47,917 nucleotides of DNA from Candidatus Methylomirabilota bacterium (GTDB lineage Bacteria > Methylomirabilota > Methylomirabilia > Rokubacteriales > DASRDR01), in the NCBI GenBank assembly GCA_035652475.1, contig DASRDR010000288.1, positions 1 to 47,917 of the forward strand. The letters are read 5' to 3'. Shown piece by piece: positions 27,387 through 43,091 of the stretch (position 1 is the first letter of the stretch; the number at the start of each line of letters is the position of its first letter). Position numbers and translations under genes: made by a program. Under the pieces are notes generated by a model. The model saw nothing but the letters and a program-made list of their open reading frames with translations, had not been told where the DNA came from and searched no databases.

Positions 27387-27402
27387 TGCAGCCTCGGTGC
27401 CA
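27387..27402 (-). promoter_or_regulatory. sigma-54 promoter P2 (TGGCACcgaggCTGCA)
   Basis: The minus strand reads TGGCAC-N5-CTGCA with the canonical GG-N10-GC spacing, 24 nt upstream of the receiver ATG at 27362. Confidence 0.55.
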
Positions 27403-27529
27403 GGCCGGACCGCCGCACCGCCTCTCGCACCGCGGGCGTCCGGACGATCGGCAGGCCCGGTGGGCTGCCGGGACCCCAGTTGGGACCGCCGTGACCGGGC
27501 GGTCCGAGCGGCCGGGAGGCCGCGCCCGA

Positions 27530-28657
27530 TCACAGCGCGAACCGCACCCGGGCGCCGATGCCCCCCGCCCGCGCGAGCCCGGGGTGCGAATCGACCAGCC
27601 ACACGCCGCCGCCCGCCGCGATGGTCGCCGTGACGACGGCCTCACCGAGCTCGACCGCGATGGTCCCGTGGCGGCACTGCCGGCAGAGCGCCGCGGTGCC
27701 GGGCTGGAGGCCGCCGCAGGCGGAGCACCGCCGGCCGGACTCCCGGAAGGCGCGCAGCAGGTAGAGCTGGTCGACCGCGCCCCGCTGGGCCGCTTCGAGG
27801 ACGGCGTCCAGGCTCGCCACGGCCCGCCCATCCTTGGCCGCCTCGGTGAGGACGGTGTCCACCGCGCGCGCGAGCGCGGCGCGCTCGCCCGTCGCGAGCG
27901 CGGTCAGCGCCCGGTCGACGACGGCCGCCGGGGTCTCGTGCCGCGCGGCCGGTACCGCGCCGGCCACCCGGCTCGCGAGGGGCTCCGGCAGCCGTCGCCG
28001 GAGTGCCGCGACGACCTCGGCCGGCCCCGCGAGCACGATGCGCCCCGCGTCGTGCTCGTCGTCCAGCCGGCCCAGGGCCGCGGCTACCGCCTCGAGATGC
28101 TGGCCGCGATGCTCGGCGATGTGCCGCTGGTATCGCGACTGGGCGAGCTGCGCCCAGCCGCCCCGGCGGTGGCGACCGGGCACGTCGCTCTCCAGGCGAA
28201 CCGTGGCGCCCGCCCCACCGATGGAGACTGGCGTGAGCCACGCGCTCTCCGCGTCCACGAACGCGACCACGGTCTCCGGACTCTCGGTCAGGAGCGCGGC
28301 CAGGGGACGCAGGACCGGCGCGGGCGCGACGACGAACGTCGGCTCGAACGGGATCCGCGCCGGCAACAGCTCGCGCAGGGTCTCGTCGCCGCCAGCGAAG
28401 AGCGCCACGCCGTGCGCCTCCGGATGGCGCGCCTGGCCGATCAGCGCCTCGCCCTGGCCCTCGATCCAGTCGAGGGCCGCGGCGAGGCGCGGCGCTGGAT
28501 CCGCGGCCCGGGCGTTCCGGACCTCGCGCCGTAGGAAGACGCGCGTCCGCTCACGCTGGTGCTCGTCCCGCCAGTCCGTGTTCAGGTACACGCTCACGAC
28601 CGGCGTGCGGCCCCCGGTCAGCCTGGCCAGCCGGGGGAGCTGCTCGGTGATGCTCAT
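27530..28657 (-). CDS. bacterial eRF1-like (baeRF / Vms1-like release-factor fold) protein with a C-terminal zinc ribbon
   Basis: 375 aa: MSITEQLPRLARLTGGRTPVVSVYLNTDWRDEHQRERTRVFL..., a central GRHRRGGWAQLAQSRYQRHIAEH (the G-G-x-x-Q...RYQR block I associate with bacterial aeRF1-type families), and a C-terminal CSACGG...CRQCRHG. GAGGAG RBS. The family assignment is from memory of motifs, not a search. Confidence 0.65.
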   Translation of the reverse strand: MSITEQLPRLARLTGGRTPVVSVYLNTDWRDEHQRERTRVFLRREVRNARAADPAPRLAAALDWIEGQGEALIGQARHPEAHGVALFAGGDETLRELLPARIPFEPTFVVAPAPVLRPLAALLTESPETVVAFVDAESAWLTPVSIGGAGATVRLESDVPGRHRRGGWAQLAQSRYQRHIAEHRGQHLEAVAAALGRLDDEHDAGRIVLAGPAEVVAALRRRLPEPLASRVAGAVPAARHETPAAVVDRALTALATGERAALARAVDTVLTEAAKDGRAVASLDAVLEAAQRGAVDQLYLLRAFRESGRRCSACGGLQPGTAALCRQCRHGTIAVELGEAVVTATIAAGGGVWLVDSHPGLARAGGIGARVRFAL

Positions 28658-28820
28658 CGTGGGATCTCCTCGGCAGGCGCCCGCCGCCGCGGCGGCCCGC
28701 GCGTGCCGCGCGGCGGCCCTCGTAGGCGTCATCTGGCCCACGGGAGGTGGCCCGGCCGCGCTCCCCGGACGGGATCCGGGATCGGCGAGGTCGGCGACCA
28801 CCCCCGTCCGCGGGGCCGGA

Positions 28821-29255
28821 CTAGGCCGCCTTGATCGGGATCGCGGTGCCCTTCGCGCCCGCCGCCTTGGGCAGCGTCACCGAGAGGAGGCCGTTCTTGA
28901 AGGTCGCGGTGACCTTGCTTCCCTCGACCGCCGCCGGGAGGCGGATGGCCCGGGTGAAAGCGCCGTAGGACCGCTCGGTCCGATAGTAATGCTCGTCCTT
29001 GTCCTCCTTCTCCTGCTTCTTCTCGCCCTTGAGCACCAGCACCTGGTCCTCGAGGGAGAGCTGGATGTCCTTGGCGTCCATGCCCGGGACCTCGGCCTTC
29101 ACCACGACCGCGTCCTTCGTCTCGGAGACGTCGAGGGCCGGCGCCCACTCCCCGATCGCCGGGAACTGGAAGTCCCCCTCCCAGAAGCGATCGAAGAGGC
29201 GATCCATCTCCTTCTTCATCGTCGACACGCCGGTCCACGGTGACAATGCTCGCAT
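28821..29255 (-). CDS. Hsp20/alpha-crystallin small heat-shock protein
   Basis: WAPALDVSETKDAVVVKAEVPGMDAKDIQLSLEDQVLVLKGEKK...ERSYGAFTRAIRLPAAVEGSKVTATFKNGLLSVTLPK is the classic ACD. GGGAGGA RBS. Confidence 0.9.
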   Translation of the reverse strand: MRALSPWTGVSTMKKEMDRLFDRFWEGDFQFPAIGEWAPALDVSETKDAVVVKAEVPGMDAKDIQLSLEDQVLVLKGEKKQEKEDKDEHYYRTERSYGAFTRAIRLPAAVEGSKVTATFKNGLLSVTLPKAAGAKGTAIPIKAA

Positions 29256-29301
29256 GTCCGGTCCTCCCTCTTCGGTGATTTAATCGGTTCGCAGAACAGG
29301 G

Positions 29302-29317
29302 AGCAACGACGATGCCA
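29302..29317 (-). promoter_or_regulatory. sigma-54 promoter P1 (TGGCATcgtcgTTGCT)
   Basis: The minus strand reads TGGCAT-N5-TTGCT with exact GG-N10-GC spacing, 46 nt upstream of the hsp20 ATG (29255). It overlaps the ATG of the divergent GNAT ORF. Confidence 0.7.
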
Positions 29318-29956
29318 TGCGGGAAGGGTCGCGGGGACGCTCGATTACCTCGGCCCGGCCCTGGCGGTCTGGGGCAGGGGCCCCTCGGCTGGGGCGCTGA
29401 CGCCCCAGGGAAGACGGCCCGCCTGACTGATGGCTCCGAGGTCTCCATCCGGCCGATCCGGCCGGAAGACGCGCCCGCGCTGACGGCACTCTACGACCGG
29501 CTGAGCCCCCACACGGCGTACCAGCGGTTCTTCACCGTGATGCGCCGGCTGCCGCCGGAGTGGGCCCGCGTCCTCGCCAACGTCGACTATGACCGCCGGA
29601 TGGCATTCGTTGCCCTGACGCCCGACGACGGGGTGATCGGGGTGGCCCGCTACCCGTCGGAAGCCGGCGCCGACGAGGCGGAGATCGCGGTCGTGGTCCA
29701 GGACGGGTGGCAGGGTCGGGGTCTCGGGACGAGGCTGGTCACCGAGCTGATCGAGTACGCGCGGGGGAAGGGGATCCGGGAGTTCCGCGCCTACGTGCTG
29801 GCCGACAACGCGCGCATGCTCGCCCTGCTCGGGCGCGTCGCGACCGTGCTCGATCGCCGGACCGAGTCCGGCATCGTCTCCCTGCGGCTCGGGCCGCCGG
29901 CCGCGTCCGCGACGGTCCGGCCCCCCGCGACGCGGCGCGACCGGCCGCACTCGTGA
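29312..29956 (+). CDS. GNAT-family N-acetyltransferase (Pat C-terminal-domain-like)
   Basis: VSIRPIRPEDAPALTALYDRLSPHTAYQRFF...AFVAL...IGVARY...AEIAVVVQDGWQGRGLGTRLVTELIEYARGKGIREFRAYVLADNARM. The only canonical start is the ATG at 29312, which gives a roughly 38-aa low-complexity extension. Confidence 0.8.
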   Translation: MPCGKGRGDARLPRPGPGGLGQGPLGWGADAPGKTARLTDGSEVSIRPIRPEDAPALTALYDRLSPHTAYQRFFTVMRRLPPEWARVLANVDYDRRMAFVALTPDDGVIGVARYPSEAGADEAEIAVVVQDGWQGRGLGTRLVTELIEYARGKGIREFRAYVLADNARMLALLGRVATVLDRRTESGIVSLRLGPPAASATVRPPATRRDRPHS

Positions 29957-29976: not shown

Positions 29977-31671
29977 TCAGGCCGGGGCGATCGCCGGGAA
30001 CGACAGCGTGAAGGTCGCCCCCTTGCCCGGTGAGGATTCGACTTCGATCGTCCCCCCGTGATCCTGCACGATGCCGTAGCTCACCGCCAGCCCGAGGCCC
30101 GTGCCGGACGCCTTCGTCGTGTAGAAGGGCTCGAAGAGGTGCGGCAGGTCGCGGGGGGCGATCCCGGGGCCCGTGTCCGCGATGACGAGGCGGACCCATC
30201 GCGGGCGCCCGGGGACGGGGCCGGTCGACACGCGGATCTCGCCGCCCGTGGTCATGGCCTCCCGCGCGTTGGTGAGCAGGTTCAGGACGACCTGCTGGAG
30301 CGCGTTGCCGTCGCCCAGGAGCGGCGGGAGGTCGGGATCGAGCGCGGTGATGACGCGGACGTTGTCCGTGCTCAAGGGCTTCCCGGCCAGGAGCAGGGTC
30401 TCCTCGACCACCTTGTTCAGGGTCACCGGCTGCCGCTCGCCCGGGGAGTGCCGGGCGAAGGAGCGGAGCGCCTTGGCCACCCCGGCGACGCGGAGCACGT
30501 TTCGGTGGACGACGCTGAGGTCCTCGAGGTGCTGGGCCGGGAGCGCCTGGCCCTGGGCGTCCGCCAGCATGAGCTCGATCCGCGAGGAGATGATCCCGAG
30601 GGGGTTATTCATCTCGTGAGCCACACCCGCCACGAGCCGGCCCAGGGCCGCCAGCTTCTCGCTCTGGTACAGGATCTCCCGCTGCCGCCGGAGCTCCTCC
30701 TCGGTGCGCCGGTGCTCGAGGTGCTGGCCGATGCGGCTCCCGATGTCGCTCAGCATCGTGAGCAGCGCGTGATCCCGTGGCGCAACCTCGCGCCGGAGGA
30801 GCACCATGATGCCGATCATGCGCTGGTCGCTCCGGACCGGGAACGCGCACCCGGATCGGAGCTCGAGGCGCGCCGCGGCCGCCGCGCGGACGAACCCGAC
30901 CTCCTGCGCGACGTCCTCGGCCCAGAGCGCCTCGCCCGTCGCCCACACCCGGCCGGGGATGCCCATCCCCCGCGCGAGAGGGACCTGACGGCCGAGCGTG
31001 GCGAACTCTTCGGCGTCCAGGGTCTCCCGGTACCAGATCGCGTCGGATCGGAGGACGTCCTCGTCCACGCGCCAGAACTCGCCCAGGTCCCAGTCCAGGC
31101 TCTCGCAGAGCGCCAGGAGGAGGCGGGGGGCGAGGCCCTCCATCGGGCCGGATTCGGCGAACACGCGCGTCACCGCGAATTCCGCCTGCAGGCGCCGCTC
31201 GGCCTCCCGGCGCGGGGTGACGTCCGTGATGAAGCTGAGCGCGAAGAGCCCCTCGTCGGTCTCGATGAAGCTCAGGCTGATCTCCACCGGGAAGGTTCGG
31301 CCGTCCTTGCGCCGGGCGACCAGGTCGAGGCCCAGTCCCATCGGGCGGACTCGCGGATGGTCGAAGAAGCTGGCACGGTGGGCCAAGTGGGCGCCGCGGA
31401 GGTGCTCGGGCAGGAGGAGCTCGACGGCGAGCCCGCCGAGCTCGTCGCGCGCGTAGCCGAACATCTCCTCCGCGCGCTGGTTCGCCCAGACGATCCGGCC
31501 GGTGCGGTCGCTCATCAGGATGCCGAGCGGCGAGGTTTCCAGGACCTTCTCGGCCCTGGCCACCGACCCAAGGAGCAACGGGTTCGGCAGCCGACCGGAG
31601 CCGCCGGCGACCCCTGGTCGCGGCCGCTGCCTCGCCGCCGCGCCTCGCTTCCCCCGTGGCATGTCGCCCAC
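29977..31671 (-). CDS. cytoplasmic PAS-GAF sensor histidine kinase
   Basis: PAS (ILMSDRTGRIVWANQRAEEMFGYARDEL...RKDGRTFPVEISLS), GAF (LDWDLGEFWRVD...GMGIPGRVWATGEALW), HisKA (LAALGRLVAGVAHEMNNPL) and HATPase (NLLTNAREAM...DTGPGI...GTGLGLAVSYGIVQDHGG). No TM segment. Start at GTG 31671 or ATG 31662. Confidence 0.9.
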   Translation of the reverse strand: MGDMPRGKRGAAARQRPRPGVAGGSGRLPNPLLLGSVARAEKVLETSPLGILMSDRTGRIVWANQRAEEMFGYARDELGGLAVELLLPEHLRGAHLAHRASFFDHPRVRPMGLGLDLVARRKDGRTFPVEISLSFIETDEGLFALSFITDVTPRREAERRLQAEFAVTRVFAESGPMEGLAPRLLLALCESLDWDLGEFWRVDEDVLRSDAIWYRETLDAEEFATLGRQVPLARGMGIPGRVWATGEALWAEDVAQEVGFVRAAAAARLELRSGCAFPVRSDQRMIGIMVLLRREVAPRDHALLTMLSDIGSRIGQHLEHRRTEEELRRQREILYQSEKLAALGRLVAGVAHEMNNPLGIISSRIELMLADAQGQALPAQHLEDLSVVHRNVLRVAGVAKALRSFARHSPGERQPVTLNKVVEETLLLAGKPLSTDNVRVITALDPDLPPLLGDGNALQQVVLNLLTNAREAMTTGGEIRVSTGPVPGRPRWVRLVIADTGPGIAPRDLPHLFEPFYTTKASGTGLGLAVSYGIVQDHGGTIEVESSPGKGATFTLSFPAIAPA

Positions 31672-31862
31672 GCATTCTTCGCCCCACCGCGAGAGCCGTC
31701 AAGCACGGCCCTGGCCGAGTCGCGCCCGCTCCTCGATGGGCTGCTCCGGCATTCGGGGATAGGGCGGTCGCGCCTCACCCGCGGAGCCGCCGCCCCATCC
31801 GGAGCGCTTGCCCCGGGGAAGCGGGGCGTCGAAATCCTCGCCGCTGGTCGCGTGGATGCGCC

Positions 31863-31878
31863 TGGCACCCCGATTGCG
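31863..31878 (+). promoter_or_regulatory. sigma-54 promoter P3 (TGGCACcccgaTTGCG)
   Basis: The plus strand reads TGGCAC-N5-TTGCG with exact spacing, ending 15 nt before the receiver ATG at 31894. This implies a very short leader. Confidence 0.65.
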
Positions 31879-31893: not shown

Positions 31894-32286
31894 ATGGCGC
31901 GAACCGTTCTCCTGGTGGACGACGAGCCCGATCTGGTGGCGAACTGCCAGCGGCTGCTCCGGCCGCTGGGATACATCTGCCTGACCGCCGACACCGGGCT
32001 CGCCGCCCTCGAGCTGATCGAGAGCCGGAGCCCCGACCTGGTCGTCACGGACCTCCGCCTTCCCGGTGCCGACGGACTGGCGGTCACGCGAGCCGCGCGC
32101 GCGCACGGACCGGCGATCCCGGTGCTCCTCATGAGCGCGCACGATTCGTCCGATGGGCGGCGCGCAGCGGCTGAGGCCGGCGCGGCCGTGTACCTGGCGA
32201 AGCCGTTCACCAACGCGACGTTCGTCGCGGCGGTCCGCCGGCTCCTGAGCGATGGAGCGACGGTGGCCGAGGCGACGCCGTCGTAG
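31894..32286 (+). CDS. stand-alone CheY-like response-regulator receiver
   Basis: MARTVLLVDDEPDLVANCQRLLRPLGYICLTADTGLAALELIESRSPDLVVTDLRLPGADGLAV...VLLMSAH...YLAKPF. No output domain. Confidence 0.85.
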   Translation: MARTVLLVDDEPDLVANCQRLLRPLGYICLTADTGLAALELIESRSPDLVVTDLRLPGADGLAVTRAARAHGPAIPVLLMSAHDSSDGRRAAAEAGAAVYLAKPFTNATFVAAVRRLLSDGATVAEATPS

Positions 32287-32310: not shown

Positions 32311-34755
32311 TCAGGCCGCTCCCGCGTGTCCCGGCGGCGTCTCGCCGCGCGGAGCTGTCCGCCCCGCCTGGGCCTCGGCGGCGGCAATGACCTCGAGTCC
32401 TCGCAACAGGGCGTCGGGATTCAGCGAGATGCTGGTGATCCCGCGCTCGACCAGGAAGCGTGTGAACTCCGGGTAGTCGCTCGGCGCCTGGCCGCAGATG
32501 CCGATCCGCCGGCCGGCCGCCCGGGCCGCCTCGATGACCGCGCCCACCATCGCCAGGACCGCCGGGTTCCGCTCGTCGAAGATCGGCGCCACGAGCTCGG
32601 AATCGCGGTCGACGCCCAGGACGAGCTGGGTCAGGTCGTTCGAGCCGATCGAGAACCCATCGAACACCTGGGCGAACTCCCGGGCGAGGATCACGTTCGA
32701 CGGGATCTCGCACATCACGTAGACCTCCAGGCCGCGCTCGCCGCGGCGGAGGCCGTGCTCGGCCATGAGCGTCACCACCCGCTGTCCCTCCTCCGGCGTC
32801 CGGCAGAAGGGGATCATGAGCTTCACGTTGGTGAGCCCCATGTCGTCGCGGACTCGTCGCATCGCCCGGCACTCCAGCGCGAACCCCTCGCGATACCTGG
32901 GATGGGCGTACCGGGAGGCGCCCCGGAACCCGAGCATCGGGTTGGCCTCGGCCGGCTCGAACTCTCGCCCGCCGATCAGCCCCGCGTACTCGTTCGACTT
33001 GAAGTCCGAAAGCCGCACGATCACGTCCCTCGGGTAGAACGCGGCCGCGATCGTCGCGACCCCCTCGGCCAGCCGGTCGACGAAGTACCCGGCGCGGTCC
33101 GCGTAGCCGTCGGTCAGCGCGTCGATCGCCGAGCGGGTGGCCGGATCCGTCACCCGCTCCGGGTGGAGGAGCGCCAGTGGGTGCGCCTTCACGACGCTGG
33201 CGATGATGAACTCGATCCGGGCCAGGCCGACCCCGTCCGCCGGCAAGGTTCCCAGCCGGAACGCCTCTCCGGGGTTCCCGACGTTCAGCATGACCCCGGT
33301 GATCGGCCGGGGGAGGGTGCCCAGGTCCACGATCCGGCGCTGGAAGGGCACCGCGCCGCGGAAGACGGCCCCGTCCTCGCCCTCGGCGCAGCTCACGGTG
33401 ACGGTCGCGCCCTCCGGGATGGTCTCCGTGCCCCGCTCGGTCCCCACGATGCACGGGACCCCGAGCTCTCGGCTGACGATGGCGGCATGGCAGGTGCGGC
33501 CGCCACGATCCGTGACGATCGCCGCCGCCCGCTTCATGATGGGTTCCCAGTCGGGATCGGTCATGGGCGCCACCAGAACCTCGCCGGGCTCCAGGCGACC
33601 CAGGTCGCGGGGATCCCGGAGGCGCCGGGCGCGGCCGACCCCGATCCGGTCCCCGATCGCGCGACCGGTCGCGAGCCGCTCGAAGCCGTCCACCGGCCCG
33701 AGGGTGAACACCTCGATCTGGGGCCGGCGTTCGGCGCGGTGCACCGTCTCCGGGCGCGCCTGCAGGATGTAGAGCCGCTCGTCCTCCCCGTCGCGCGCCC
33801 ACTCGATGTCCATCGGGACCGCGCGGCCGACCTTCGCGGAGTAGTGCGCCTCGATGGCGAGGGCCAGGCGCGCCAGCTCCAGCACCTCGGGATCGCTGAG
33901 GCTCGGCCGGAGCCGTGCGCCGGCCGGGACCTCGAGCCGGACGGGGGCGCCCTCCGGGTCCAGGCCGAGCTTCCAGATCTTCTGCCGGACGGCGCGCTGC
34001 AGGATCGCCTGCTGTCCCGCGCGGAGGGCCGGCTTGAACACGCGGAACTCGTCCGGGTCCAGCTCGCCCTTCACGATCGGCTCGCCGAGCCCGTAGGCCG
34101 CGTTGATGACGACCACGTCCGGCGAGCCGCTGTCGGGGTCGATCGTGAACATGACCCCGGCGGCGCCGGTGTCGGCCCGGACCATTCGCTGGACCGCGAC
34201 CGAGAGGCGGACGGCCAGGTGATCGAATCCGTGCTCCACGCGGTACACGATCGCGCGATCGGTGAACAGGGACGCGAAGCAGCGCCGGCAGGCCTCCAGC
34301 AGCCGCTCGGGCCCGCGCACCCCCAGGAACGTCTCCTGCTGGCCAGCGAAGCTCGCCTCCGGGAGGTCCTCGGCGGTGGCGCTGGACCGGACTGCGACCG
34401 CGGGCTCGACGCCGGTCTCGCCCTGCATGGTCGCGTACGCGTCGCGGATCTCCTGGTCGAGGCCGGCCGGCCACGGCGCCTCCAGGAGGAGCGCGCGGGC
34501 AGCCATCCCGGCCCGGGCCAGGGCCGTCACGTCCTCGCCGGAGATCCCGCGCACGAGCGACTCGAGGCGAGCCCGAACCCCCGCGCCGTCGAGGAGGGCT
34601 GCGTAGGCCTCCGCGGTGACGGCGAACCCGTTCGGGACCCGGACGCCGGCCGCCGCCAGCTCGCCGTAGAGCTCCCCGAGGGAGGCGGTCTTGCCCCCGA
34701 CGAGCGGGAGATCGCGAAGGCGGATGTCCCGGAACCAGCGGATGTACCGCGGCAC
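32311..34755 (-). CDS. ppsA: phosphoenolpyruvate synthase (pyruvate, water dikinase)
   Basis: IRWFRDIRLRDLPLVGGKTASLGELY, the phosphohistidine region GGRTCHAAIVSRELGVPCIVG, and a C-terminal PEP-utilising TIM barrel (FSIGSNDLTQL). 814 aa, GTG start. Confidence 0.95.
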   Translation of the reverse strand: MPRYIRWFRDIRLRDLPLVGGKTASLGELYGELAAAGVRVPNGFAVTAEAYAALLDGAGVRARLESLVRGISGEDVTALARAGMAARALLLEAPWPAGLDQEIRDAYATMQGETGVEPAVAVRSSATAEDLPEASFAGQQETFLGVRGPERLLEACRRCFASLFTDRAIVYRVEHGFDHLAVRLSVAVQRMVRADTGAAGVMFTIDPDSGSPDVVVINAAYGLGEPIVKGELDPDEFRVFKPALRAGQQAILQRAVRQKIWKLGLDPEGAPVRLEVPAGARLRPSLSDPEVLELARLALAIEAHYSAKVGRAVPMDIEWARDGEDERLYILQARPETVHRAERRPQIEVFTLGPVDGFERLATGRAIGDRIGVGRARRLRDPRDLGRLEPGEVLVAPMTDPDWEPIMKRAAAIVTDRGGRTCHAAIVSRELGVPCIVGTERGTETIPEGATVTVSCAEGEDGAVFRGAVPFQRRIVDLGTLPRPITGVMLNVGNPGEAFRLGTLPADGVGLARIEFIIASVVKAHPLALLHPERVTDPATRSAIDALTDGYADRAGYFVDRLAEGVATIAAAFYPRDVIVRLSDFKSNEYAGLIGGREFEPAEANPMLGFRGASRYAHPRYREGFALECRAMRRVRDDMGLTNVKLMIPFCRTPEEGQRVVTLMAEHGLRRGERGLEVYVMCEIPSNVILAREFAQVFDGFSIGSNDLTQLVLGVDRDSELVAPIFDERNPAVLAMVGAVIEAARAAGRRIGICGQAPSDYPEFTRFLVERGITSISLNPDALLRGLEVIAAAEAQAGRTAPRGETPPGHAGAA

Positions 34756-34851
34756 TCAGGGTCTCCGCGCGTAGATCCACACCGCCGTCCCCACGACCAG
34801 CGCGACCACCGCCGCCACGATCGCCCACTGGTCCTGGATCGCCTGGACCAT
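34756..34851 (-). CDS. 31-aa hydrophobic peptide immediately upstream of ppsA
   Basis: MVQAIQDQWAIVAAVVALVVGTAVWIYARRP, with GAGGAGG 7 nt before the ATG. Its TGA abuts the ppsA GTG (TGAGTG). Confidence 0.4.
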   Translation of the reverse strand: MVQAIQDQWAIVAAVVALVVGTAVWIYARRP

Positions 34852-35138: not shown

Positions 35139-35498
35139 TCAGCTCGATGGATCGTCGCCCGCCGCGTCGCGTGCCAGATGCCAGTAGTGCCGGTCACGGT
35201 CCCGCAGGATCTCCCCGGACGTCCGCACCTCGGCGTCGGCGGCCTGCGGGACGCCGAGCGCCTCCCCGATCTCGTCCACGACGTCCTGGTCGGGCGTCGC
35301 CACGCTGCCGCCGACCGCTTCCTCCCCCGAGGCGGCCGCCCGCTCCCAGTCGGCATCGGGATCGCCGCCGGTCAGGCGACACGCCGGCGCGGCCGGGAGC
35401 TCGGCATCGCCCGCGAACTCGTCGGCCCGGGGACTCATGATGGGGGGCAACCGCTGCGGGACGTCGGGCCGTCGGGCACGGCGGGCCTTCTTCTCCAT
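35139..35498 (-). CDS. acidic conserved-hypothetical protein (DUF6335-like by recollection)
   Basis: ...LTGGDPDADWERAAASGEEAVGGSVATPDQDVVDEIGEALGVPQAADAEVRTSGEILRDRDRHYWHL. GGAGGA RBS. It lies 24 nt after the tandem-USP stop. Confidence 0.6.
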   Translation of the reverse strand: MEKKARRARRPDVPQRLPPIMSPRADEFAGDAELPAAPACRLTGGDPDADWERAAASGEEAVGGSVATPDQDVVDEIGEALGVPQAADAEVRTSGEILRDRDRHYWHLARDAAGDDPSS

Positions 35499-36418: not shown

Positions 36419-36434
36419 TGCAACGGGGGTGCCA
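36419..36434 (-). promoter_or_regulatory. sigma-54 promoter P4 (TGGCACccccgTTGCA)
   Basis: The minus strand gives a perfect consensus TGGCAC-N5-TTGCA, 62 nt upstream of the tandem-USP ATG (36356). Confidence 0.7.
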
Positions 36435-36584
36435 CCGAGGTGCTGGCCTGTCGCCGGGCCGGCTGCCGGCGGTCGCCGGCACAGGTATCCCGTCGTCGCC
36501 CCACGTGGGGCACTCGAGCCGCTCGGGTGAGAGAGCCCGGGCGCGGGACTCCCGGTCCCGCGGGAGTCGCCGACGCGCCGGGCG

Positions 36585-36600
36585 TGGCATCGCGGTTGCT
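36585..36600 (+). promoter_or_regulatory. sigma-54 promoter P5 (TGGCATcgcggTTGCT)
   Basis: The plus strand reads TGGCAT-N5-TTGCT with exact spacing, ending 16 nt before the ATG at 36617. It is divergent from P4, about 150 bp away. Confidence 0.65.
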
Positions 36601-36616: not shown

Positions 36617-37582
36617 ATGAACGCGCCGTGCGGCGGCGACGCGTGGGCGATGATCCTCGCGGGAGGGGAGGGAGTTCGCCTGCGCCCTCTGACCCGACGG
36701 ATTGCCGGCGACGACCGCCCGAAGCAGTTCTGCCCGCTCCTCGGGGGCGAGACCCTGCTCGCCCGGACGCGTCGGCGCGCGGCCCTGGCCGTGAGCCCCC
36801 GGCGGACGGTGTTCCTTCTCACCGAGAGCCATGAGCCCTTCTACGCGCCCCTCCTGGCCGACGTCCCACCGGAGCGCCTGGTGGTGCAGCCCTCCGGTCG
36901 CGGGACCGCGCCCGCGATCCTCTACGGTCTGCTCCGGATCGCCGAACGTGGGGGCGACGATCCCGTCGCCATGCTGCCGTCCGACCACTACGTCTCGGAC
37001 GACGCCCGGTTCATGGAGCACGTGGAGGCGGCCTTCGCCGCGGTGCGCCTCCGGCCGGAGCTGATCATCCTGCTCGGGATCCAGGCGGACCGGCCGGAGC
37101 CTCAGTACGGCTGGATCGAGCCGGCCGGCCGGCCGCTGCTGGAGTGCGGCGGCCACCCTGTCCATCGCGTGCGCCGTTTCTGGGAGAAGCCGCCCCCCGC
37201 CCTCGCCGAGCGCCTCCTCGATCGCGCGTGCCTGTGGAACAGCTTCGTGGTCGTGGGGCGCGTCCCCGCGCTGCTCGCGCTCATCCGGGCGAGCGCCCCC
37301 GCGCTGGAGGGCGCCTTCGCGGCGGCCTGGCGGCGCCGGGCGGTGGACGGGGCAGGCGATGCAGTGCGGCAGCTCTACCGCGAGCTGGCGCCGGCGGACT
37401 TCTCGGCGGACGTGCTCGCCGCCAGGCCAGCGAGCCTCGCGGTCCTCGCCGTGCGCGGCGTGGACTGGTGCGACTGGGGCGAGCCTGGCCGGGTCCGGCG
37501 GACCCTGGCGCGGCTCGGAGGCAGACGCGCGTCGCCGGAGCCGCGCGCCGCCGCGGCGGCGCGCACGGACCGGTCCGCATGA
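36617..37582 (+). CDS. NDP-sugar pyrophosphorylase (mannose-1-phosphate guanylyltransferase-like nucleotidyltransferase)
   Basis: WAMILAGGEGVRLRPLTRRIAGDDRPKQFCPLLGGETLL...LVVQPSGRGTAPAILYGL...MLPSDHYV...GWIE...FWEKP...WNSFVVVG. Confidence 0.8.
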   Translation: MNAPCGGDAWAMILAGGEGVRLRPLTRRIAGDDRPKQFCPLLGGETLLARTRRRAALAVSPRRTVFLLTESHEPFYAPLLADVPPERLVVQPSGRGTAPAILYGLLRIAERGGDDPVAMLPSDHYVSDDARFMEHVEAAFAAVRLRPELIILLGIQADRPEPQYGWIEPAGRPLLECGGHPVHRVRRFWEKPPPALAERLLDRACLWNSFVVVGRVPALLALIRASAPALEGAFAAAWRRRAVDGAGDAVRQLYRELAPADFSADVLAARPASLAVLAVRGVDWCDWGEPGRVRRTLARLGGRRASPEPRAAAAARTDRSA

Positions 37583-38844
37583 TGCCGCGCCGAAGCGGGG
37601 CGGGGGGCGATCGGCTCGCGCCGGATCTGTCGCCCGGGTGGCCGCGAGCGGGGACCGTCGGGATCGCGCTGGCGGCGATGGCCATGGCCGCGGGTCTCGC
37701 GGGGCTCGGGGCGAGCCTCCGCGCCACCAGCCGGGCGATCGCGGAGCTGACCGCGGGCATCGAGCGCGAGCGGCTCGGACGCGAGGCCCTGGCCCGCGAG
37801 ATGCTCGCGGACCGGACCCGTCTGGCCGCGTACCAGGCCGACGTCCGGAACCTGATCGCGGCCGGACGGGCTGAGGTCACCGCCGTGGAACGGACGGTGC
37901 AGGCGCTCGAGGCGGAGCGCCTCGCGGGCGAGCGGATCATCCGGGCCTACGGCCCCGGGGTGGCCCTCCTGCAGGGCACGCTGGTCTACGAGGACCGCGA
38001 GGGGCGGCCGCTCCGGTACTCCACGGACGCGGCTCACCGGCGTCGCGGGGAGCCGCCGGCCGGTCCACGGATCAGCCTGGACGGGCGCGGCGACGTGGTC
38101 GAGTCGACCTTCCTCGGGACCGGCTTCCTGGCCAGCCGCGACGGCGCGGTGCTGACGAACCGCCACATCGCGTATCCGTGGGAGCGGGACGACGAGCTGG
38201 GCGACCTGCTGGAGCAAGAGGGGCTCACCCCGCGGGTGGTGCAGCTCCGCGCCCTCTTCCCGGGGGTACCGGAGCCCGTCGCGCTGAGCGTCGTGCGCGC
38301 CTCCCGGGACGCTGACGTCGTGGTCCTGCGAGGTCGCGTACCGACGTCGGTCCCGGTCCTTCCGCTGGAGCGCACCGGGCAGCTGGCGATCCCAGGACGC
38401 TCGGTCATTGTCCTGGGGCATCCCGGGGGCCTCGAGCTTCTGCTGGCCCGGGTTGACCCGGCGGTCCTGCGCGCGCTGATCGGACCCGACGCAACCGCGC
38501 TCGGCGACACGACCGTCCCCGTTCCGGCGCTGCTCGAGCGCCTGAACCGTCTCGGCCAGATCCGCGCGTACGCGACGTGGGGCCACCTGGCGGACACGCG
38601 GCCGCACCAGCTCGCCCACGACGCCGCCACGAGCATCGGCGGCAGCGGCGGCCCGATCTTCGCGACCTCGGGGCGCGTGATCGGCATCAGCACGGCCGTC
38701 GTCACCGGCCTCGACGGGGCCGCGCTCGGGACGCCGATCCGATCCGCGCTGGCCCTCCTGGACTCGGCCCGCCGCCCGGCGGCGCGGCGGCCGGGACCGT
38801 CGGGCGCTTCGACGCCGTCACTCGCGCCGGGTCCGAGCCGATAG
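37579..38844 (+). CDS. membrane-anchored trypsin-like (S1) serine protease with a coiled-coil linker
   Basis: The ATG overlaps the upstream stop (ATGA). TM segment VGIALAAMAMAAGLAGLG. Triad contexts: LTNRHIAYPW (His), DADVVVLRG (Asp), IGGSGGPIF (Ser). Confidence 0.7.
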   Translation: MMPRRSGAGGDRLAPDLSPGWPRAGTVGIALAAMAMAAGLAGLGASLRATSRAIAELTAGIERERLGREALAREMLADRTRLAAYQADVRNLIAAGRAEVTAVERTVQALEAERLAGERIIRAYGPGVALLQGTLVYEDREGRPLRYSTDAAHRRRGEPPAGPRISLDGRGDVVESTFLGTGFLASRDGAVLTNRHIAYPWERDDELGDLLEQEGLTPRVVQLRALFPGVPEPVALSVVRASRDADVVVLRGRVPTSVPVLPLERTGQLAIPGRSVIVLGHPGGLELLLARVDPAVLRALIGPDATALGDTTVPVPALLERLNRLGQIRAYATWGHLADTRPHQLAHDAATSIGGSGGPIFATSGRVIGISTAVVTGLDGAALGTPIRSALALLDSARRPAARRPGPSGASTPSLAPGPSR

Positions 38845-38989: not shown

Positions 38990-39751
38990 ATGAGCCCCTG
39001 GAGCGCCAGCGTACTGAGCGTGGTCGTCGTGAGTTTGGTCTCGCTCGTCGGACTCGCCACCATGCCCCTCACCGAGGCGGCCATCCGGCGGGTGGCGGGG
39101 CTCCTGGTCAGCTTCGCCGTCGGCGCGCTGCTCGGCGATGCCTTCATCCATCTCATCCCGCAGTCGTTCCACCCGGGCGAGCCGACCCTCTCGGCGTCGC
39201 TCCTGGTCCTGGGCGGGATCCTGCTGTTCTTCGTCGCGGAGAAGCTCCTCCGACACGAGCACGGGCCCCTCCACCGGCACCACCATCCCGCTGCGTCGAC
39301 CCGACCCGAGCTGGCCGCGATCAACGTCCTCGGCGACGCGATCCACAACTTCATCGACGGCATGCTGATCGCCGCCAGCTACCTGGCGAGCCCGACCCTC
39401 GGCGTCGCCACGACGGTCGCGGTGCTCTTCCACGAGATCCCGCAGGAGCTCGGGGATTTCGGGATCCTGCTCCACAGCGGCCTCACCGTCCGGCAGGCGG
39501 TCCTCGTCAACCTGGGGTCGGGCAGCGTCGCGGTCCTCGGGACGGTCGGCGTGCTGGTGGCCGGGGGGGTCTCGGTGGCCGCCGTCACCACGGTCCTGGT
39601 GCCGATCGCGGCGGGGGGGTTCGTGTACATCGCCGCAGCCGACCTGATCCCGGAGCTCCAGCACGAGCGGAGCCTGCGCGGCCTGCTCGCGCAGGCGACC
39701 CTGATCTTGCTCGGAATCGGGGTCATGGGGGCGCTGACCAGCCTCGAGTGA
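38990..39751 (+). CDS. ZIP-family divalent metal transporter (ZupT-like)
   Basis: VGALLGDAFIHLIP, a His-rich loop HEHGPLHRHHHP, NVLGDAIHNFIDGMLIAASY, LFHEIPQELGDFGILL, GGFVYIAAADLIPEL. Confidence 0.85.
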   Translation: MSPWSASVLSVVVVSLVSLVGLATMPLTEAAIRRVAGLLVSFAVGALLGDAFIHLIPQSFHPGEPTLSASLLVLGGILLFFVAEKLLRHEHGPLHRHHHPAASTRPELAAINVLGDAIHNFIDGMLIAASYLASPTLGVATTVAVLFHEIPQELGDFGILLHSGLTVRQAVLVNLGSGSVAVLGTVGVLVAGGVSVAAVTTVLVPIAAGGFVYIAAADLIPELQHERSLRGLLAQATLILLGIGVMGALTSLE

Positions 39752-39884: not shown

Positions 39885-41321
39885 GTGCCGCCAGGGCCAG
39901 CGATGCGGCGCGGCGGCGACGCTCCACCCGCGGCGGAGGTGAGCGCGACGGTGCGCGTGTTGATCGTCGACGACGAACCGGATGTGGTCGCGAACTGGGC
40001 GCGGGTGCTGCAGCGCGACGGGCACACATGCGTGGCGACCACCGACGGCGAGCGGGCGCTGGGGCTGCTCGAGAGCGAGCGGCCGGAGATCGTGCTCACC
40101 GACCTCAAGATGCCTGGCGTCGACGGGATGCAGGTCCTGACCCGCGCGATCGACCTGGATCCGGACGCCGTGGTGATCGTGATCACCGGGCACGGGACGG
40201 TCGAGTCCGCGGTGCAGGCCATGCGGGCCGGCGCATTCGATTACCTCCTGAAGCCGCTGCCCTCCAATGACGTGCTCAGCCTCGCGGTCGAGCGGGCGCG
40301 CGAGCGGCGGCGCCTCGTCGAGGAGAATCGCCGGCTCCGCGAGCCCCTGGCCTCGCGCGCCGGCTTCGACGACATCGTGGGCAAGGGCCCGGCGATGGAG
40401 GCGGTCTTCGATCTCGTCCAGCGGGCAGCCCGATCCGACGCCAACATCCTGATCCAGGGCGAGTCGGGCACGGGCAAGGAGCTGATCGCACGGGCGATTC
40501 ACGCCAACAGTCCCCGCGCGGCCGAGATCTTCGTCCCGGTCGACTGCGCCGCGCTCCCGGACGCCCTGCTGGAGTCGGAGCTGTTCGGCCACGAGCGCGG
40601 CGCATTCACCGGCGCCGACCGCGCGAAGCCCGGGATGATCGAGGTGGCGGATCGCGGCACGCTCTTCCTGGACGAGATCGGGGAGCTCCCGCTCGCGCTG
40701 CAGCCGAAGCTGCTCCGCGCGCTCCAGGAGCGGCAGATCCGACGCGTCGGCTCCACGCGGTTCCTGAGCGTGGACGTCCGGCTGGTCGCCGCCACGAACC
40801 GCGACATCGGGGCGCTGGTGCGGAAGGGCGAGTTCCGCGAGGAGCTCTTCTATCGCGTCAACGTCATCACGATCGCGCTCCCGCCGCTCCGGGAGCGGGC
40901 GGGGGACGTGAAGCTCCTGGCCCATCACTTCTTGCGTCGGTACGGTCGGAACCGGGAGCGCCCGCTGGAGGGGTTCGAGCCCGAGGTGCTCGGTCTGCTG
41001 CAGGCGTACTCGTGGCCCGGCAACGTCCGCGAGCTGCAGAACGTGGTCGAGCGAGCCTGTGCCCTGGCCGACGGGCCGGTCATCCGCGCCCGTGACCTGC
41101 CCGAGCACGTCCGGGGCCGCGGCCGGCCAGCGCCCGCGACCCCCGGCAAGGACCTCCCGCTGGCGGAAGCCCGCGAGATCTGGCTCCGCGGCTTCGCCCA
41201 GGAGTACCTGACCGATCTCCTGCGGCGCCACGGCGGGAACGTCTCCCAGGCGGCCAAGACCGCCGGGGTGGACCGGAAGACCCTCCACCGCCTGCTGGCC
41301 CGGCACGGGATCCGTGGCTGA
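39885..41321 (+). CDS. sigma-54-dependent response regulator (REC-AAA+-Fis HTH; NtrC family)
   Basis: REC (VLIVDDEPD...VLTDLKMPGVDG...DYLLKP), AAA+ (ILIQGESGTGKELIARAIH, GAFTGA, LFLDEIGELP, RLVAATN, ELFYRVN) and C-terminal HTH (GNVSQAAKTAGVDRKTLHRLL). The exact start is uncertain (39885-39951). Confidence 0.9.
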   Translation: MPPGPAMRRGGDAPPAAEVSATVRVLIVDDEPDVVANWARVLQRDGHTCVATTDGERALGLLESERPEIVLTDLKMPGVDGMQVLTRAIDLDPDAVVIVITGHGTVESAVQAMRAGAFDYLLKPLPSNDVLSLAVERARERRRLVEENRRLREPLASRAGFDDIVGKGPAMEAVFDLVQRAARSDANILIQGESGTGKELIARAIHANSPRAAEIFVPVDCAALPDALLESELFGHERGAFTGADRAKPGMIEVADRGTLFLDEIGELPLALQPKLLRALQERQIRRVGSTRFLSVDVRLVAATNRDIGALVRKGEFREELFYRVNVITIALPPLRERAGDVKLLAHHFLRRYGRNRERPLEGFEPEVLGLLQAYSWPGNVRELQNVVERACALADGPVIRARDLPEHVRGRGRPAPATPGKDLPLAEAREIWLRGFAQEYLTDLLRRHGGNVSQAAKTAGVDRKTLHRLLARHGIRG

Positions 41322-41421
41322 TGCCCGCCCGCCGCCCGATCCGCCGGGGCACGCCTCGGCCCTGGCGGGTGCCGCCGACCGCTTCGTGCCGGCGCCGAGG
41401 CCCCCGGAGCTCAGCCGGCGG

Positions 41422-41787
41422 TCATGCGAGCGGCGCGGCGCCGGTCGCCAGCAGCCGGCGCGCCGCGTAGTACTTCTTCGGCCGCCGCCGGCTCTCCCGG
41501 AGCCGGTCCCGCTCCTGCGCGAGCTCGCGCTCGAGGACCGTCACGGCCTCGTCGAACGCCCGTCGCGCGGCGGTGGCGGTCTGCTCGACGCGCAGATCGG
41601 CCCGCCCGGGGCGTCGGACCGTGAGCGCGCAGCGCATGGCGCGACCGCCCTTCGGGCCGTTGTCGTCGAAGAACGTCGCCAGGGCCGTCACGGGAGCGGG
41701 CAGGCCCTGGACCGCCGCCGCCAGCTTCGTCGCGACGCGGGTACGCAGGGCGCCGTCGACCGGGATCCCGCGGATCTCGAGCTTCAT
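41422..41787 (-). CDS. HPF/RaiA-family ribosome-associated (hibernation-factor-like) protein
   Basis: MKLEIRGIPVDGALRTRVATKLAAAVQGL...RCALTVRRPGRADLRVEQTATAARRAFDEAVTVLERELAQERDRLRE follows the M-x-[LI]-x-I-x-G-x-x-[VI]-x-x-x-x-L-R...K-L...L-E-R-x-L pattern of sigma-54 modulation protein/HPF. GAGGAG RBS. Confidence 0.6.
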   Translation of the reverse strand: MKLEIRGIPVDGALRTRVATKLAAAVQGLPAPVTALATFFDDNGPKGGRAMRCALTVRRPGRADLRVEQTATAARRAFDEAVTVLERELAQERDRLRESRRRPKKYYAARRLLATGAAPLA

Positions 41788-41843
41788 CGCATGCTCCTCG
41801 CTTGAGGGTGCCCGCGACCCGGGTCGGACCGGGTCGCGCGTCG

Positions 41844-42854
41844 TCACGCCCCGGGATCCACCGCGAGGATCGCGGTTCCCCGGATCAGATCCCGCCGGAG
41901 CTGGACCAGGGCGTCATTGGCCTCCTCCAGCCGGAACGCTGTGGTCTCCGGCCGGATGGGGATCGCGGCGGCCTCGCGGAAGAGCTCCTCGCCGTCCCTC
42001 CGCGTGTTGGCCTCGACGCTGGTCAGGACCTTCTCGTGGAACAGGCACTCCGCGTAGGCCATGGTCGGGACCGGGCTCAGATGGATGCCGGCGATCGCGA
42101 CGGTGCCGCCCTTGCGCACCGCCCGGAGCGCGACAGGCACGAGCTCGCCGGCGGGAGCGAAGAGGATCGCGGCATCGAGCGGCTCCGGCATCGCCTGGGC
42201 GGCCTGGCCGACCCACTCGGCCCCCAGTTGGCGGGCCAGGGCCCGATGGCTCGCCCCGCGCGTGGCGACGAAGACGCGGCAGCCACGGTGGCGGGCGATC
42301 TGGATCACGATGTGAGCCGAGGATCCGAAGCCGTACAGGCCCAGCCGGCCGCCGGGCGGCACCGCGCTCCGCCGGAGCGCCCGGTACCCGATGATCCCCG
42401 CGCACAGGAGCGGGGCGGCCTCCCGGTCGGAGAAGACGGGCGGGATCGGGTAGGCGAACGCCTCCGGCACGAGGGCGAGCTCGGAGTACCCGCCGTCGGC
42501 GTGGTAGCCGGTGTAGCGCGAACGCTCGCAGAGGTTCTCCTGGCCCGCCCGGCAGAACTCGCACGTCCCGCACGTCCAGCGGAGCCAGGCGATGCCGATC
42601 CGATCGCCGATCCGGAATCGCTGGCAGCCGGGCCCGAGGGCGTCCACCGTGCCGACGACCTGATGCCCGGGGATGAGCGGCATGCACCGCGGCGGGAGGT
42701 CTCCCTCGATGACGTGGAGATCCGTGCGGCAGATCGCGGAGGTGCGCACACGGACCCGGACCTCGCCCGCGGCCGGCGCCGGATCCGGGACCTCCTCCAG
42801 GCGGAGGGGATGGGTGTCGATGAGGGCCTGGCCGTGGAGCCGCATGGCCCTCAT
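41844..42854 (-). CDS. zinc-dependent alcohol dehydrogenase (MDR family)
   Basis: ICRTDLHVIEGDL...PLIPGHQVVGTV, the structural-zinc loop CGTCEFCRAGQENLC, and the GLYGFGSSAH Rossmann motif. AGGAGG RBS. Confidence 0.9.
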   Translation of the reverse strand: MRAMRLHGQALIDTHPLRLEEVPDPAPAAGEVRVRVRTSAICRTDLHVIEGDLPPRCMPLIPGHQVVGTVDALGPGCQRFRIGDRIGIAWLRWTCGTCEFCRAGQENLCERSRYTGYHADGGYSELALVPEAFAYPIPPVFSDREAAPLLCAGIIGYRALRRSAVPPGGRLGLYGFGSSAHIVIQIARHRGCRVFVATRGASHRALARQLGAEWVGQAAQAMPEPLDAAILFAPAGELVPVALRAVRKGGTVAIAGIHLSPVPTMAYAECLFHEKVLTSVEANTRRDGEELFREAAAIPIRPETTAFRLEEANDALVQLRRDLIRGTAILAVDPGA

Positions 42855-42997
42855 GCCGGCCTCCTGCGCGCCATCCTTCGCCCGGCCCGGGCTGCCGGCG
42901 CGGACACCGGGTGCGGTCGCTCTTCCGTCGAGCCGAAACCCGGGCCGCGGGGATCGCACTCGGCGCGAAGCTTCTCCGCGAGGAGCGCGCGCATCAT
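42851..42997 (-). CDS. possible 48-aa upstream ORF translationally coupled to the ADH gene
   Basis: MMRALLAEKLRAECDPRGPGFGSTEERPHPVSAPAARAGRRMARRRPA. It has high GC3 and its TGA overlaps the ADH ATG (ATGA). It lies inside the roughly 210-nt leader predicted from promoter P6. Confidence 0.25.
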   Translation of the reverse strand: MMRALLAEKLRAECDPRGPGFGSTEERPHPVSAPAARAGRRMARRRPA

Positions 42998-43075
42998 CGC
43001 CCCCCGCAGTCTGACCTCGGATGCGACTGGGTCATGCTCCTCCGCGCGCCCGGTTGCCGGCGCGCCGCTCGGAGG

Positions 43076-43091
43076 TGCAACGCGGGTGCCA
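43076..43091 (-). promoter_or_regulatory. sigma-54 promoter P6 (TGGCACccgcgTTGCA)
   Basis: The minus strand gives a perfect consensus TGGCAC-N5-TTGCA, 241 nt downstream of the rtcB stop and about 220 nt upstream of the ADH ATG. Confidence 0.65.

Follow-up and report, generated by a model that had tools for sequence, protein, structure and literature searches.

A 47,917-nt stretch of DNA from a Candidatus Methylomirabilota bacterium (GCA_035652475.1, contig DASRDR010000288.1, positions 1-47,917 forward; G+C 74%; 'the window' in what follows) carries six sites, P1-P6, which to judge from their sequence are very probably real sigma-54 promoters. The same cluster encodes an enhancer-binding protein (EBP) of the NtrC type and a cytoplasmic sensor kinase. 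We consider it likely that the region forms the core of a regulon for stress and ribosome hibernation that depends on sigma-54 in a Rokubacteria/Methylomirabilota-like bacterium and is under the control of a canonical NtrC-type two-component system. A preliminary description of this DNA had proposed a sigma-54 cluster driving operons of a stress or dormancy type, and that proposal is now strengthened: the sites are far above chance and are conserved at orthologous positions.

Six probable sigma-54 promoter sites

The pattern TGGCAYN5YTGCW has five exact matches in the window against 0.10 expected, and 0/100 of the dinucleotide-preserving shuffles reach five. When up to one mismatch to TGGCAYN5TTGC is allowed, precisely P1-P6 are returned and nothing else in the window. 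A weighted -24/-12 scan of both strands likewise places P1-P6 as the top six in 48 kb, with scores of 19.5-20.5 out of a maximum of 21.2; the runners-up score 18.7 and lie within coding sequence, with none in the first 27 kb. At all six sites the -24 GG and the -12 GC are spaced by exactly 10 nt in the context TGGCAY-N5-YTGC, and all six are intergenic, each on the strand of the adjacent gene and pointing at that gene. The preliminary description had listed the same six sites on the same strands, had placed them all in gaps facing their genes and had judged other candidates to be poorer; on each of these points the scans agree with it.

From the 3' end of the site to the first in-frame start codon on the same strand, the distance is 15-62 nt for P1-P5. 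P6 is 78 nt from a doubtful open reading frame (ORF) of 48 codons and 222 nt from the start of the alcohol dehydrogenase (ADH) gene. Strong ribosome-binding sites (GAGGGAGGA) are found behind P1 and P4. A scan for sigma-70 promoters and terminators gave results that were not above chance, and an Rfam scan found tRNA only and no known RNA element in the leaders.

The surroundings of P1 show two further features. An AT-rich leader motif, AACCGATTAAATCACC (29274-29289, minus strand), lies between P1 and the ribosome-binding site of Hsp20; it has no Rfam match and is kept as ACCGATTAGAACACC in two related loci (L162 and L163) amid diverged surrounding DNA. It could mark the region of the transcription start or an element of post-transcriptional control. 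The longest ORF of a GNAT acetyltransferase (29312-29956, plus strand) overlaps P1, and the initial 30 codons of this ORF include, on the other strand, the dyad of P1 (see below); its Pfam match begins at residue 45, so the true start of this gene is probably further downstream.

Conservation in relatives

The relatives compared include two Candidatus Rokuibacteriota/Methylomirabilota metagenome-assembled genomes (MAGs), L001 and L002, loci from soil metagenomes, and a 790-kb ENA contig, L162 (ERZ25039555 contig_4588), whose orthologues of the activator, the kinase, Hsp20 and PpsA are 80-86%, 65%, 84% and 81% identical to those of the window, respectively. P1 has orthologues in L162 (TGGCATTGCGGTTGCT) and in L163, at an equal distance from the Hsp20 start codon; the sequence in these two loci can be written as TGGCATTGC(G/A)GTTGCT. 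On alignment of P1 with L162 the -24/-12 block, the upstream dyad, the leader motif and the ribosome-binding site are conserved, whereas the intervening sequence has diverged. Direct intergenic alignment with L001 and L002 was also tried, and these regions proved to be too diverged to inform.

The orthologue of P2 in L161 (TGGCACCGAGCGTGCA) lies between a Balon gene (81% identical) and an intact receiver gene of 144 amino acids, and sites corresponding to P3 stand before the orthologues of the receiver gene RR2 in L001 (2287), L002 (4077) and L162 (6850). The divergent pair P4/P5 recurs in L083, where two sigma-54 sites stand back to back between USP2 and the nucleoside triphosphate (NTP) transferase-protease genes, and in L082, where the right-hand gene is again the NTP-transferase and the left-hand gene is HPF; a back-to-back pair is also retained in L090, L096, L105, L002 and L163. 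The NTP-transferase orthologues of L001, L002 and about 12 high-GC metagenome loci have a site in front of them, and no sigma-54 site was found before the same enzyme in lineages of lower G+C. Orthology support for P6 comes only from L082, in which the HPF orthologue is directly behind a sigma-54 site.

The layout of the cluster is conserved as well. L162 and L163 share the arrangement of receiver, kinase, GNAT, Hsp20-Balon and EBP genes with the window, with the order kinase, GNAT, Hsp20-Balon retained. In L001 and L002 the kinase gene is followed by a sigma-54 site and a receiver gene, and a second site precedes the NTP-transferase and EBP genes; additional sites stand before Hsp20, universal stress protein (USP) and GAPDH genes. 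Overall, promoters of the same type are found in relatives before USP, USP-PpsA (as in L163), GAPDH, CBS/BON and BON-domain genes, a YbaK-like editing-domain gene, a LonC-like protease gene, a gene for a sigma factor of the sigma-70 family and a receiver-kinase-EBP operon.

A second promoter flavour, TGGCTC-N5-CTTGCT with a conserved GAGGCAAGGAGG leader, was seen in both Rokubacteria MAGs (L001 8811 and 19582; L002 8818 and 17232), where it precedes the NTP-transferase-EBP genes and a TTHB210-like/cupredoxin pair.

A dyad upstream of the promoters

A candidate upstream activating sequence (UAS) surfaced on comparing the regions upstream of the NTP-transferase genes of many loci, from which dyad enumeration picked TGGGG-N8-CCCCA. 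With up to one mismatch and spacers of 7-9 allowed, the spacer is 8 in every match. The dyad lies upstream of 19 of 35 sigma-54 sites at -76 to -145, mostly at -76 to -104 (offsets are those of the dyad 5' end relative to the T of TGGCA), against a background of 0.05 per 260 nt. The pairing of dyad and sigma-54 site was found for 2/6 sites in this window, 3/12 in L001 and L002 and 14/32 in high-GC metagenome loci, compared with 1/104 in 78 unrelated EBP loci (1.23 Mb) and 0/5 in low-GC NTP-transferase loci. The pairing is specific to this lineage (19/50 versus 1/104 sites).

In a degenerate form, TGSGG-N8-CCSCA, the 18-bp consensus is found before P1-P5 with 5' ends between -76 and -90. The centres of these dyads are some 93-107 bp upstream of the inferred start sites, which is the classical position for an activator of the NtrC type. 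A weight matrix made from sites outside the window and run over its 47,900 positions ranks the P1 dyad 1, the dyad common to P4 and P5 9 and the P2 dyad 10. Four of the 15 window matches to the degenerate consensus (up to one mismatch) fall in the -76 to -90 zones, those of P1, P2, P3 and P4/P5, against an expectation of about 0.08 there. Perfect dyads are also present before the P1 orthologues, at -91 in L162 and at -94 in L163; the P3 orthologue in L162 has a one-mismatch dyad, CGGGGTGGCGATGCCCCA, at -80; and the element shared by P4 and P5 also lies between the divergent promoter pairs of L082, L083, L105 and L163.

Other candidates for a shared upstream element did not survive. Exact or near-exact k-mers common to the six upstream regions were GC-rich noise only, and a tight palindrome, CCCC-N2-6-GGGG, matched only P1 and P4/P5. 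An 11-mer, CCGGGGAAGCG, had been suggested in the preliminary description as part of an enhancer. It does occur at 31813-31823 (plus) and 43152-43162 (minus), with 0.24 occurrences expected and 2/100 shuffles reaching two; as an enhancer it fails, since it is not conserved, the offsets being -50 and -71 and the five scattered matches in 160 loci including none beside a sigma-54 site.

The activator, the kinase and the receivers

Genes were called by third-position G+C and named by Pfam and, in some cases, NCBIfam. The presumed activator has the Pfam domains REC, Sigma54_activat, AAA_lid and HTH_8, and its GAFTGA and GESGTGKE motifs and receiver aspartate (TDLKMPG) are intact, so that the presence in the cluster of a REC-AAA+-HTH activator, reported earlier together with that of a cytoplasmic PAS-GAF kinase, is upheld. 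Its nearest relatives among species-representative genomes come from two Rokuibacteriota/Methylomirabilota MAGs (77% identity), with the next match at 50%, and orthologues in L001, L002 and L162 are 77-86% identical. The helix-turn-helix segment (GNVSQAAK..DRKTLH) is kept among the orthologues that share the dyad, unlike in outgroups.

The activator gene is downstream of P5 on the same strand, after the NTP-transferase, protease and ZIP genes. It directly follows the NTP-transferase gene in L001 and L002; in L162 and L163 a sigma-54 site is followed by a string of receiver, AAA_33 and EBP genes, in which the EBP comes last. This placement behind sigma-54 sites in the window and in all four relatives makes autoregulation of the activator likely.

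The kinase, the presumed input, has a PAS domain whose closest solved relatives are the haem domains of FixL (E = 1e-11) and DosP (E = 1e-9). The 'GAH' of this domain aligns with the 'SRH' of FixL, which contains the proximal histidine, the haem ligand of FixL. Kinase orthologues adjoin a receiver gene, near the EBP gene, in L001, L002 and L162. That two single-domain receiver genes have sigma-54 promoters of their own suggests feedback through competition for phosphoryl groups.

These parts can be assembled into the following mechanism. The kinase would sense its signal through the FixL/DosP-like PAS and the GAF domain, the signal probably being O2, redox state or a diatomic gas, and would phosphorylate the activator. 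The activator would bind the 18-bp dyad and, with ATP, open the closed complexes of sigma-54 RNA polymerase at P1-P5 and probably P6. Switched on in this way would be Hsp20 and Balon from P1; HPF/RaiA and the Zn-dependent ADH from P6; the tandem USP and DUF6335 proteins, perhaps with PpsA, from P4; the NDP-sugar transferase and the protease, and perhaps also ZIP and the activator's own gene, from P5; and, from P2 and P3, the two receivers, which might feed back as phosphate sinks or connectors.

Proteins encoded behind the promoters

The cargo agrees with what had been described from the DNA alone: Pfam recognizes HSP20, an eRF1-like protein (baeRF_family10), Usp, DUF6335, NTP_transferase, Trypsin_2, S30AE/HPF and a Zn-dependent ADH. 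The eRF1-like protein is, on profile comparison, a homologue of Balon. A single-sequence search against the PDB gave no match and a profile was needed; that built from 25 homologues matched MSMEG_1130 of Mycobacterium smegmatis (8v9j_z; E = 2e-18) and Rv2629 of M. tuberculosis (8v9k_z; E = 1e-8), both over the full length, and the Psychrobacter entry 8rd8_B (E = 7e-4). In NCBIfam its full-length matches are sub-threshold (63/320 bits for the Rv2629 family and 58/480 bits for the MSMEG_1130 family), and it represents a distinct subfamily. Where its homologues carry a source name, this is Rokubacteria, Methylomirabilis or Methylomirabilota. The HPF-like protein is above the Pfam cut-off and gave only marginal IF3 matches against the PDB.

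No promoter of its own was detected for PpsA, which may be co-transcribed with the P4 operon. The preliminary description had noted PpsA and an ADP-forming acetyl-CoA synthetase nearby; both genes are indeed present, and neither has its own sigma-54 promoter. The synthetase gene (13768-16035) follows a single-domain USP gene (the pair spanning 13768-16612, minus strand), and we place this pair outside the predicted regulon since it is without a sigma-54 site. A 31-codon ORF with high third-position G+C (34756-34851, minus strand), encoding a hydrophobic peptide (MVQAIQDQWAIVAAVVALVVGTAVWIYARRP), ends exactly at the PpsA start.

Coordinates of the promoter sites, upstream dyads and genes discussed in the text
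Feature	Position	Strand	Remarks
P1, sigma-54 promoter TGGCATCGTCGTTGCT	29302..29317	-	Before Hsp20-Balon
P2, sigma-54 promoter TGGCACCGAGGCTGCA	27387..27402	-	Before receiver gene RR1
P3, sigma-54 promoter TGGCACCCCGATTGCG	31863..31878	+	Before RR2
P4, sigma-54 promoter TGGCACCCCCGTTGCA	36419..36434	-	Before tandem USP-DUF6335, possibly PpsA
P5, sigma-54 promoter TGGCATCGCGGTTGCT	36585..36600	+	Before NTP-transferase and protease, possibly ZIP and EBP
P6, sigma-54 promoter TGGCACCCGCGTTGCA	43076..43091	-	Before (small ORF)-Zn-ADH-HPF
P1 putative UAS, perfect dyad TGGGGCGCTGACGCCCCA	29390..29407	.	At -90; matrix rank 1
P2 UAS-like dyad TGGGCTGCCGGGACCCCA, one mismatch	27461..27478	.	At -76; matrix rank 10
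P3 candidate UAS CGCGGAGCCGCCGCCCCA, one mismatch to TGSGG-N8-CCSCA	31780..31797	.	At -83; weak site
Putative UAS common to divergent P4/P5 TGGGGCACTCGAGCCGCT	36506..36523	.	At -89 / -79; matrix rank 9
P6 half-site TGGGGTGCGGCCGGGGCA	43165..43182	-	Canonical position -91; left half perfect, right half no match
NtrC-type EBP (REC-AAA+-HTH_8), presumed activator	39939..41321	+	Pfam
Cytoplasmic sensor kinase (PAS-GAF-HisKA-HATPase), presumed input	29977..31578	-	Pfam
RR1, single-domain receiver gene, disrupted	26928..27362	-	Two frame changes, no in-frame start
RR2, single-domain receiver gene	31894..32286	+	Pfam Response_reg, 94.7 bits, full length
Hsp20 (alpha-crystallin), first gene of P1 operon	28821..29255	-	Pfam HSP20, 84.5 bits; ATG 29255, ribosome-binding site GAGGGAGGA
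Balon-family (aeRF1-like, baeRF_family10) hibernation factor homologue	27530..28657	-	Pfam baeRF_family10, 85 bits
Conserved 67-aa basic protein downstream of RR1	26543..26746	-	No Pfam match
Tandem universal stress protein	35523..36356	-	Pfam Usp, two domains
DUF6335 acidic protein	35139..35498	-	Pfam DUF6335, 80 bits
Phosphoenolpyruvate synthase PpsA	32311..34755	-	Pfam; downstream of P4 operon, same strand
Mannose-1-phosphate guanylyltransferase-like NTP transferase	36617..37582	+	Pfam NTP_transferase; NCBIfam GMP_PMI, N-terminal half, below cut-off
Trypsin-like (S1) serine protease	37579..38844	+	Pfam Trypsin_2; orthologue after NTP-transferase in L083
ZIP metal transporter	38990..39751	+	Pfam Zip, 153 bits
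Zn-dependent alcohol dehydrogenase	41844..42854	-	Pfam ADH_N, ADH_zinc_N; NCBIfam adh_fam_2, 393 bits, above cut-off
Short HPF/RaiA-like ribosome hibernation protein	41422..41787	-	Pfam Ribosomal_S30AE, 31.5 bits, above cut-off

Evidence against a single regulon and alternative explanations

Several observations weigh against one regulon under the local activator. An ORF with an RpoN box is absent from the window, and among all of the loci compared only a myxobacterial rpoN was found; the activator with its GAFTGA motif gives only an indirect hint that the genome encodes sigma-54. Between the 3' end of P3 or P5 and the first in-frame ATG there are only 15-16 nt. RR2 would then have a leader of about 5 nt, as would the NTP-transferase unless an internal ATG is used; a true start of the latter at the internal ATG just before its ILAGGEG motif is plausible. 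As to the dyad, the 15 matches in the window are in number not above chance, so the argument rests on position and on the other genomes. The dyads of P3 and P4/P5 have one mismatch each even to the degenerate consensus, that of P2 is conserved only in part in L161, and the upstream position of P6 has no match to the weight matrix and holds the half-site only. The activator scores below the cut-off against all of the named EBPs of NCBIfam (AtoC, NtrC, ZraR, GlrR and others), the best being AtoC with 470 versus 714 bits; it is not an equivalog of a named EBP, and no known protein can therefore serve to predict its site specificity. The gap of 130-190 bp upstream of its gene contains a conserved TACGGT/TACAGT-like block, which may be a separate promoter of the activator gene. 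Finally, RR1, which the preliminary description had listed as a receiver behind P2, is broken in this sequence: the Pfam Response_reg match spans only half of the profile with the remainder of the domain in another frame, there is a frame change near 27150, and the domain, which starts with RILIVEDE, is not read in the frame of the sole ATG (27362). Split genes are seen in L162 and L163 too, which makes assembly indels as likely an explanation as a pseudogene.

The alternative that survives best accepts the regulon as described and has its signal come from starvation, metal stress, heat or damage to proteins instead of from hypoxia or redox state, by analogy with the envelope or metabolic responses of the ZraSR/AtoSC type; we regard it as unlikely, though deserving of attention. 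The catalytic half of the kinase and the activator score best against the AtoS/AtoC and ZraS/ZraR models of NCBIfam, there is a ZIP gene in the P5 string and a P-type cation ATPase gene after the receiver gene in L001, and Hsp20, LonC-like protease and BON-domain genes stand behind such promoters in relatives. The scores against the named families are, however, all far below the cut-offs; FixL and DosP, both haem oxygen sensors, are the nearest solved relatives of the PAS domain, in which a histidine aligns with the haem ligand; and Hsp20, tandem USP, Balon and HPF overlap the hypoxia-induced DosR set (PMC10901736).

It is also conceivable, although improbable in our estimation, that the promoters are real and do not form one regulon, being served by several EBPs encoded elsewhere, with the local activator in charge of only a part of them, or of none. 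Many EBPs are usually encoded in genomes of this kind. P6 is without the dyad and that of P3 is weak, the NTP-transferase promoters of relatives use a distinct TGGCAG/TGGCTC variant, and most of the dyad-bearing metagenome loci show no EBP gene nearby. Against this, one dyad with an 8-bp spacer and a fixed distance recurs before Hsp20, USP, HPF, NTP-transferase, receiver and CBS promoters across genomes, and an EBP orthologue (77-86% identical, with the helix-turn-helix conserved) is found in the same neighbourhood in L001, L002, L162 and L163.

A third possibility, that the dyad is the site of another regulator, such as one of the Crp/Fnr type or a repressor, and that the EBP binds elsewhere, takes some encouragement from a Crp/Fnr-family gene that adjoins Balon in one related contig. 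We judge it to be very unlikely: the dyad is unlike the FNR/CRP box (TTGAT-N4-ATCAA), stands at the classical enhancer distance from the -24 element, is common to divergent sigma-54 pairs and is almost absent at the sigma-54 sites of other lineages. That the six sites are chance matches, or a repeated element without promoter function, draws on the lack of an rpoN gene in the window and can practically be dismissed given the excess over chance and the intergenic, correctly oriented placement reported above, the conservation of orthologous sites while the flanking intergenic DNA diverged, and the GAFTGA-bearing activator in the cluster. We retain a single regulon under the local two-component system as the likely explanation.

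Neighbouring genes

The 67-residue basic protein encoded downstream of RR1 is 51% identical to unannotated ORFs of 67 residues in L162, and a 67-residue ORF follows USP genes in a similar cluster at 16944-17147 in L162 and 16717-16920 in L163. The 'small basic ORF' that had been listed behind P2 is probably no more than the conserved 67 codons at that ORF's own C-terminal end.

Beside P6, on one strand (43332-47872, minus), lie an AMP-binding/PP-binding/acyltransferase gene and then, directly, genes for an RtcB RNA ligase and archease. No sigma-54 site for RtcB/archease was found inside the window; their operon begins beyond its end. In L164 a similar AMP-binding/acyltransferase gene adjoins Balon.

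At the other end of the window (254-2331, plus) an RpoS/RpoD-like gene of the sigma-70 family comes after a LysM/M23 peptidase gene, in an nlpD-rpoS-like arrangement, and tRNA-Arg(CCT) follows at 2255-2331. The ~3.3 kb past this tRNA gene (2331-5650) stand out from the remainder of the window: their third-position G+C bias is only weak and they have no convincing ORFs. They may be decayed or foreign DNA beside a tRNA gene.

Implications

Rokubacteria-like bacteria are abundant in soil and uncultured, and their gene regulation has so far been a blank; a literature search for sigma-54 or rpoN in Rokubacteria, Methylomirabilis and Methylomirabilota found nothing relevant. What we propose is a concrete circuit of a sensor kinase, an activator, an 18-bp site and six promoters, which would govern entry into a protected, low-translation state through Hsp20, Balon, HPF and USPs. 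The mechanism is canonical. What is new is the make-up of the regulon, its dyad, the fact that it is conserved across an uncultured phylum, and its convergence with DosR. The sequence evidence for co-regulation would tie Balon to HPF and Hsp20. The parts of the circuit are small enough for reconstitution in Escherichia coli.

A broader interpretation, which we put forward tentatively, is of a dormancy programme throughout the Rokubacteria/Methylomirabilota phylum. A haem-PAS kinase and an activator of the NtrC type would use sigma-54 and a single dyad enhancer to drive hibernation factors of both classes, Balon and HPF/RaiA, as well as Hsp20, USPs and metabolic genes. This would be an independent and convergent re-invention of the actinobacterial DosR regulon with another transcription machinery, the first Balon circuit to be defined outside mycobacteria and the first regulon described in the phylum. 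The recurrence of a DosR-type gene set in an unrelated phylum under a different promoter type argues that the set is itself a functional module.

Comparison with known systems

The system is most readily compared with those of the NtrC family (NtrBC, AtoSC, ZraSR, DctBD), with which it shares a histidine kinase paired with a REC-AAA+(GAFTGA)-HTH_8 activator, promoters with a -24 GG and a -12 GC, a dyad about 100 bp from the start and common to divergent promoters, and probable autoregulation. It differs in that its sensor is cytoplasmic, with a FixL-like PAS and a GAF domain, and in its cargo, which comprises chaperone, ribosome-hibernation and USP functions and not nitrogen, short-chain fatty acid or metal functions. 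We know of no NtrC or AtoC site that TGSGG-N8-CCSCA matches.

With FixLJ of rhizobia the likeness is in the input: the haem domain of FixL is the most similar to the kinase PAS, with the proximal histidine aligned, and there this input switches on a low-oxygen programme. FixJ, however, is of the LuxR type and acts at sigma-70 promoters, whereas here the activator is a sigma-54 AAA+ protein and the kinase has an extra GAF domain.

Small heat-shock proteins and USPs have been connected to sigma-54 before. The ibpB gene of E. coli has a sigma-54 promoter. Genes for IbpA-type chaperones and COG0589 USPs are predicted sigma-54 targets in several classes of bacteria, in a survey that does not mention this phylum (PMC12316311). 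These predicted cases are single genes or statistical enrichments; the present one is a co-localized set with both hibernation factors, one promoter type and one dyad.

In gene content the overlap with DosRST (DevRS) of mycobacteria is striking. The likeness to DosR drawn in the preliminary description gains from the Balon/Rv2629 homologue, the adjacent RtcB/archease genes and the FixL/DosP-like PAS. RtcB/archease correspond to Rv2631/Rv2630 of the DosR regulon, and the P-type ATPase and ferritin genes in relatives recall ctpF and bfrB. Both systems include Hsp20 (HspX-like), tandem USP (Rv2623-like), Balon (Rv2629 family) and HPF/RaiA (Rv0079-like) and a kinase with a GAF domain, here with what is probably a haem sensor. 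The Rv0079 and RtcB entries of this comparison are from a published account in which Balon genes are reported beside Hsp20, RaiA and RtcB and are hypoxia-induced in mycobacteria, and in which Rv2629, a Balon homologue, is a ribosome hibernation factor of the DosR regulon (PMC10901736); baeRF-1 genes have also been linked to HPF (PMC6514570).

The regulatory parts are not the same. DosR is of the NarL/LuxR type and works at promoters of the sigma-70 type with DosR boxes, whereas here the activator is of the NtrC type, the promoters are -24/-12 and Pfam finds no GerE/LuxR-type regulator in the cluster. DosS and DosT are haem-GAF kinases; a GAF domain is present here, but the domain that resembles a haem sensor is the PAS. 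The two systems also belong to different phyla. The system described here is best regarded as a functional analogue of DosR and not as a member of it.

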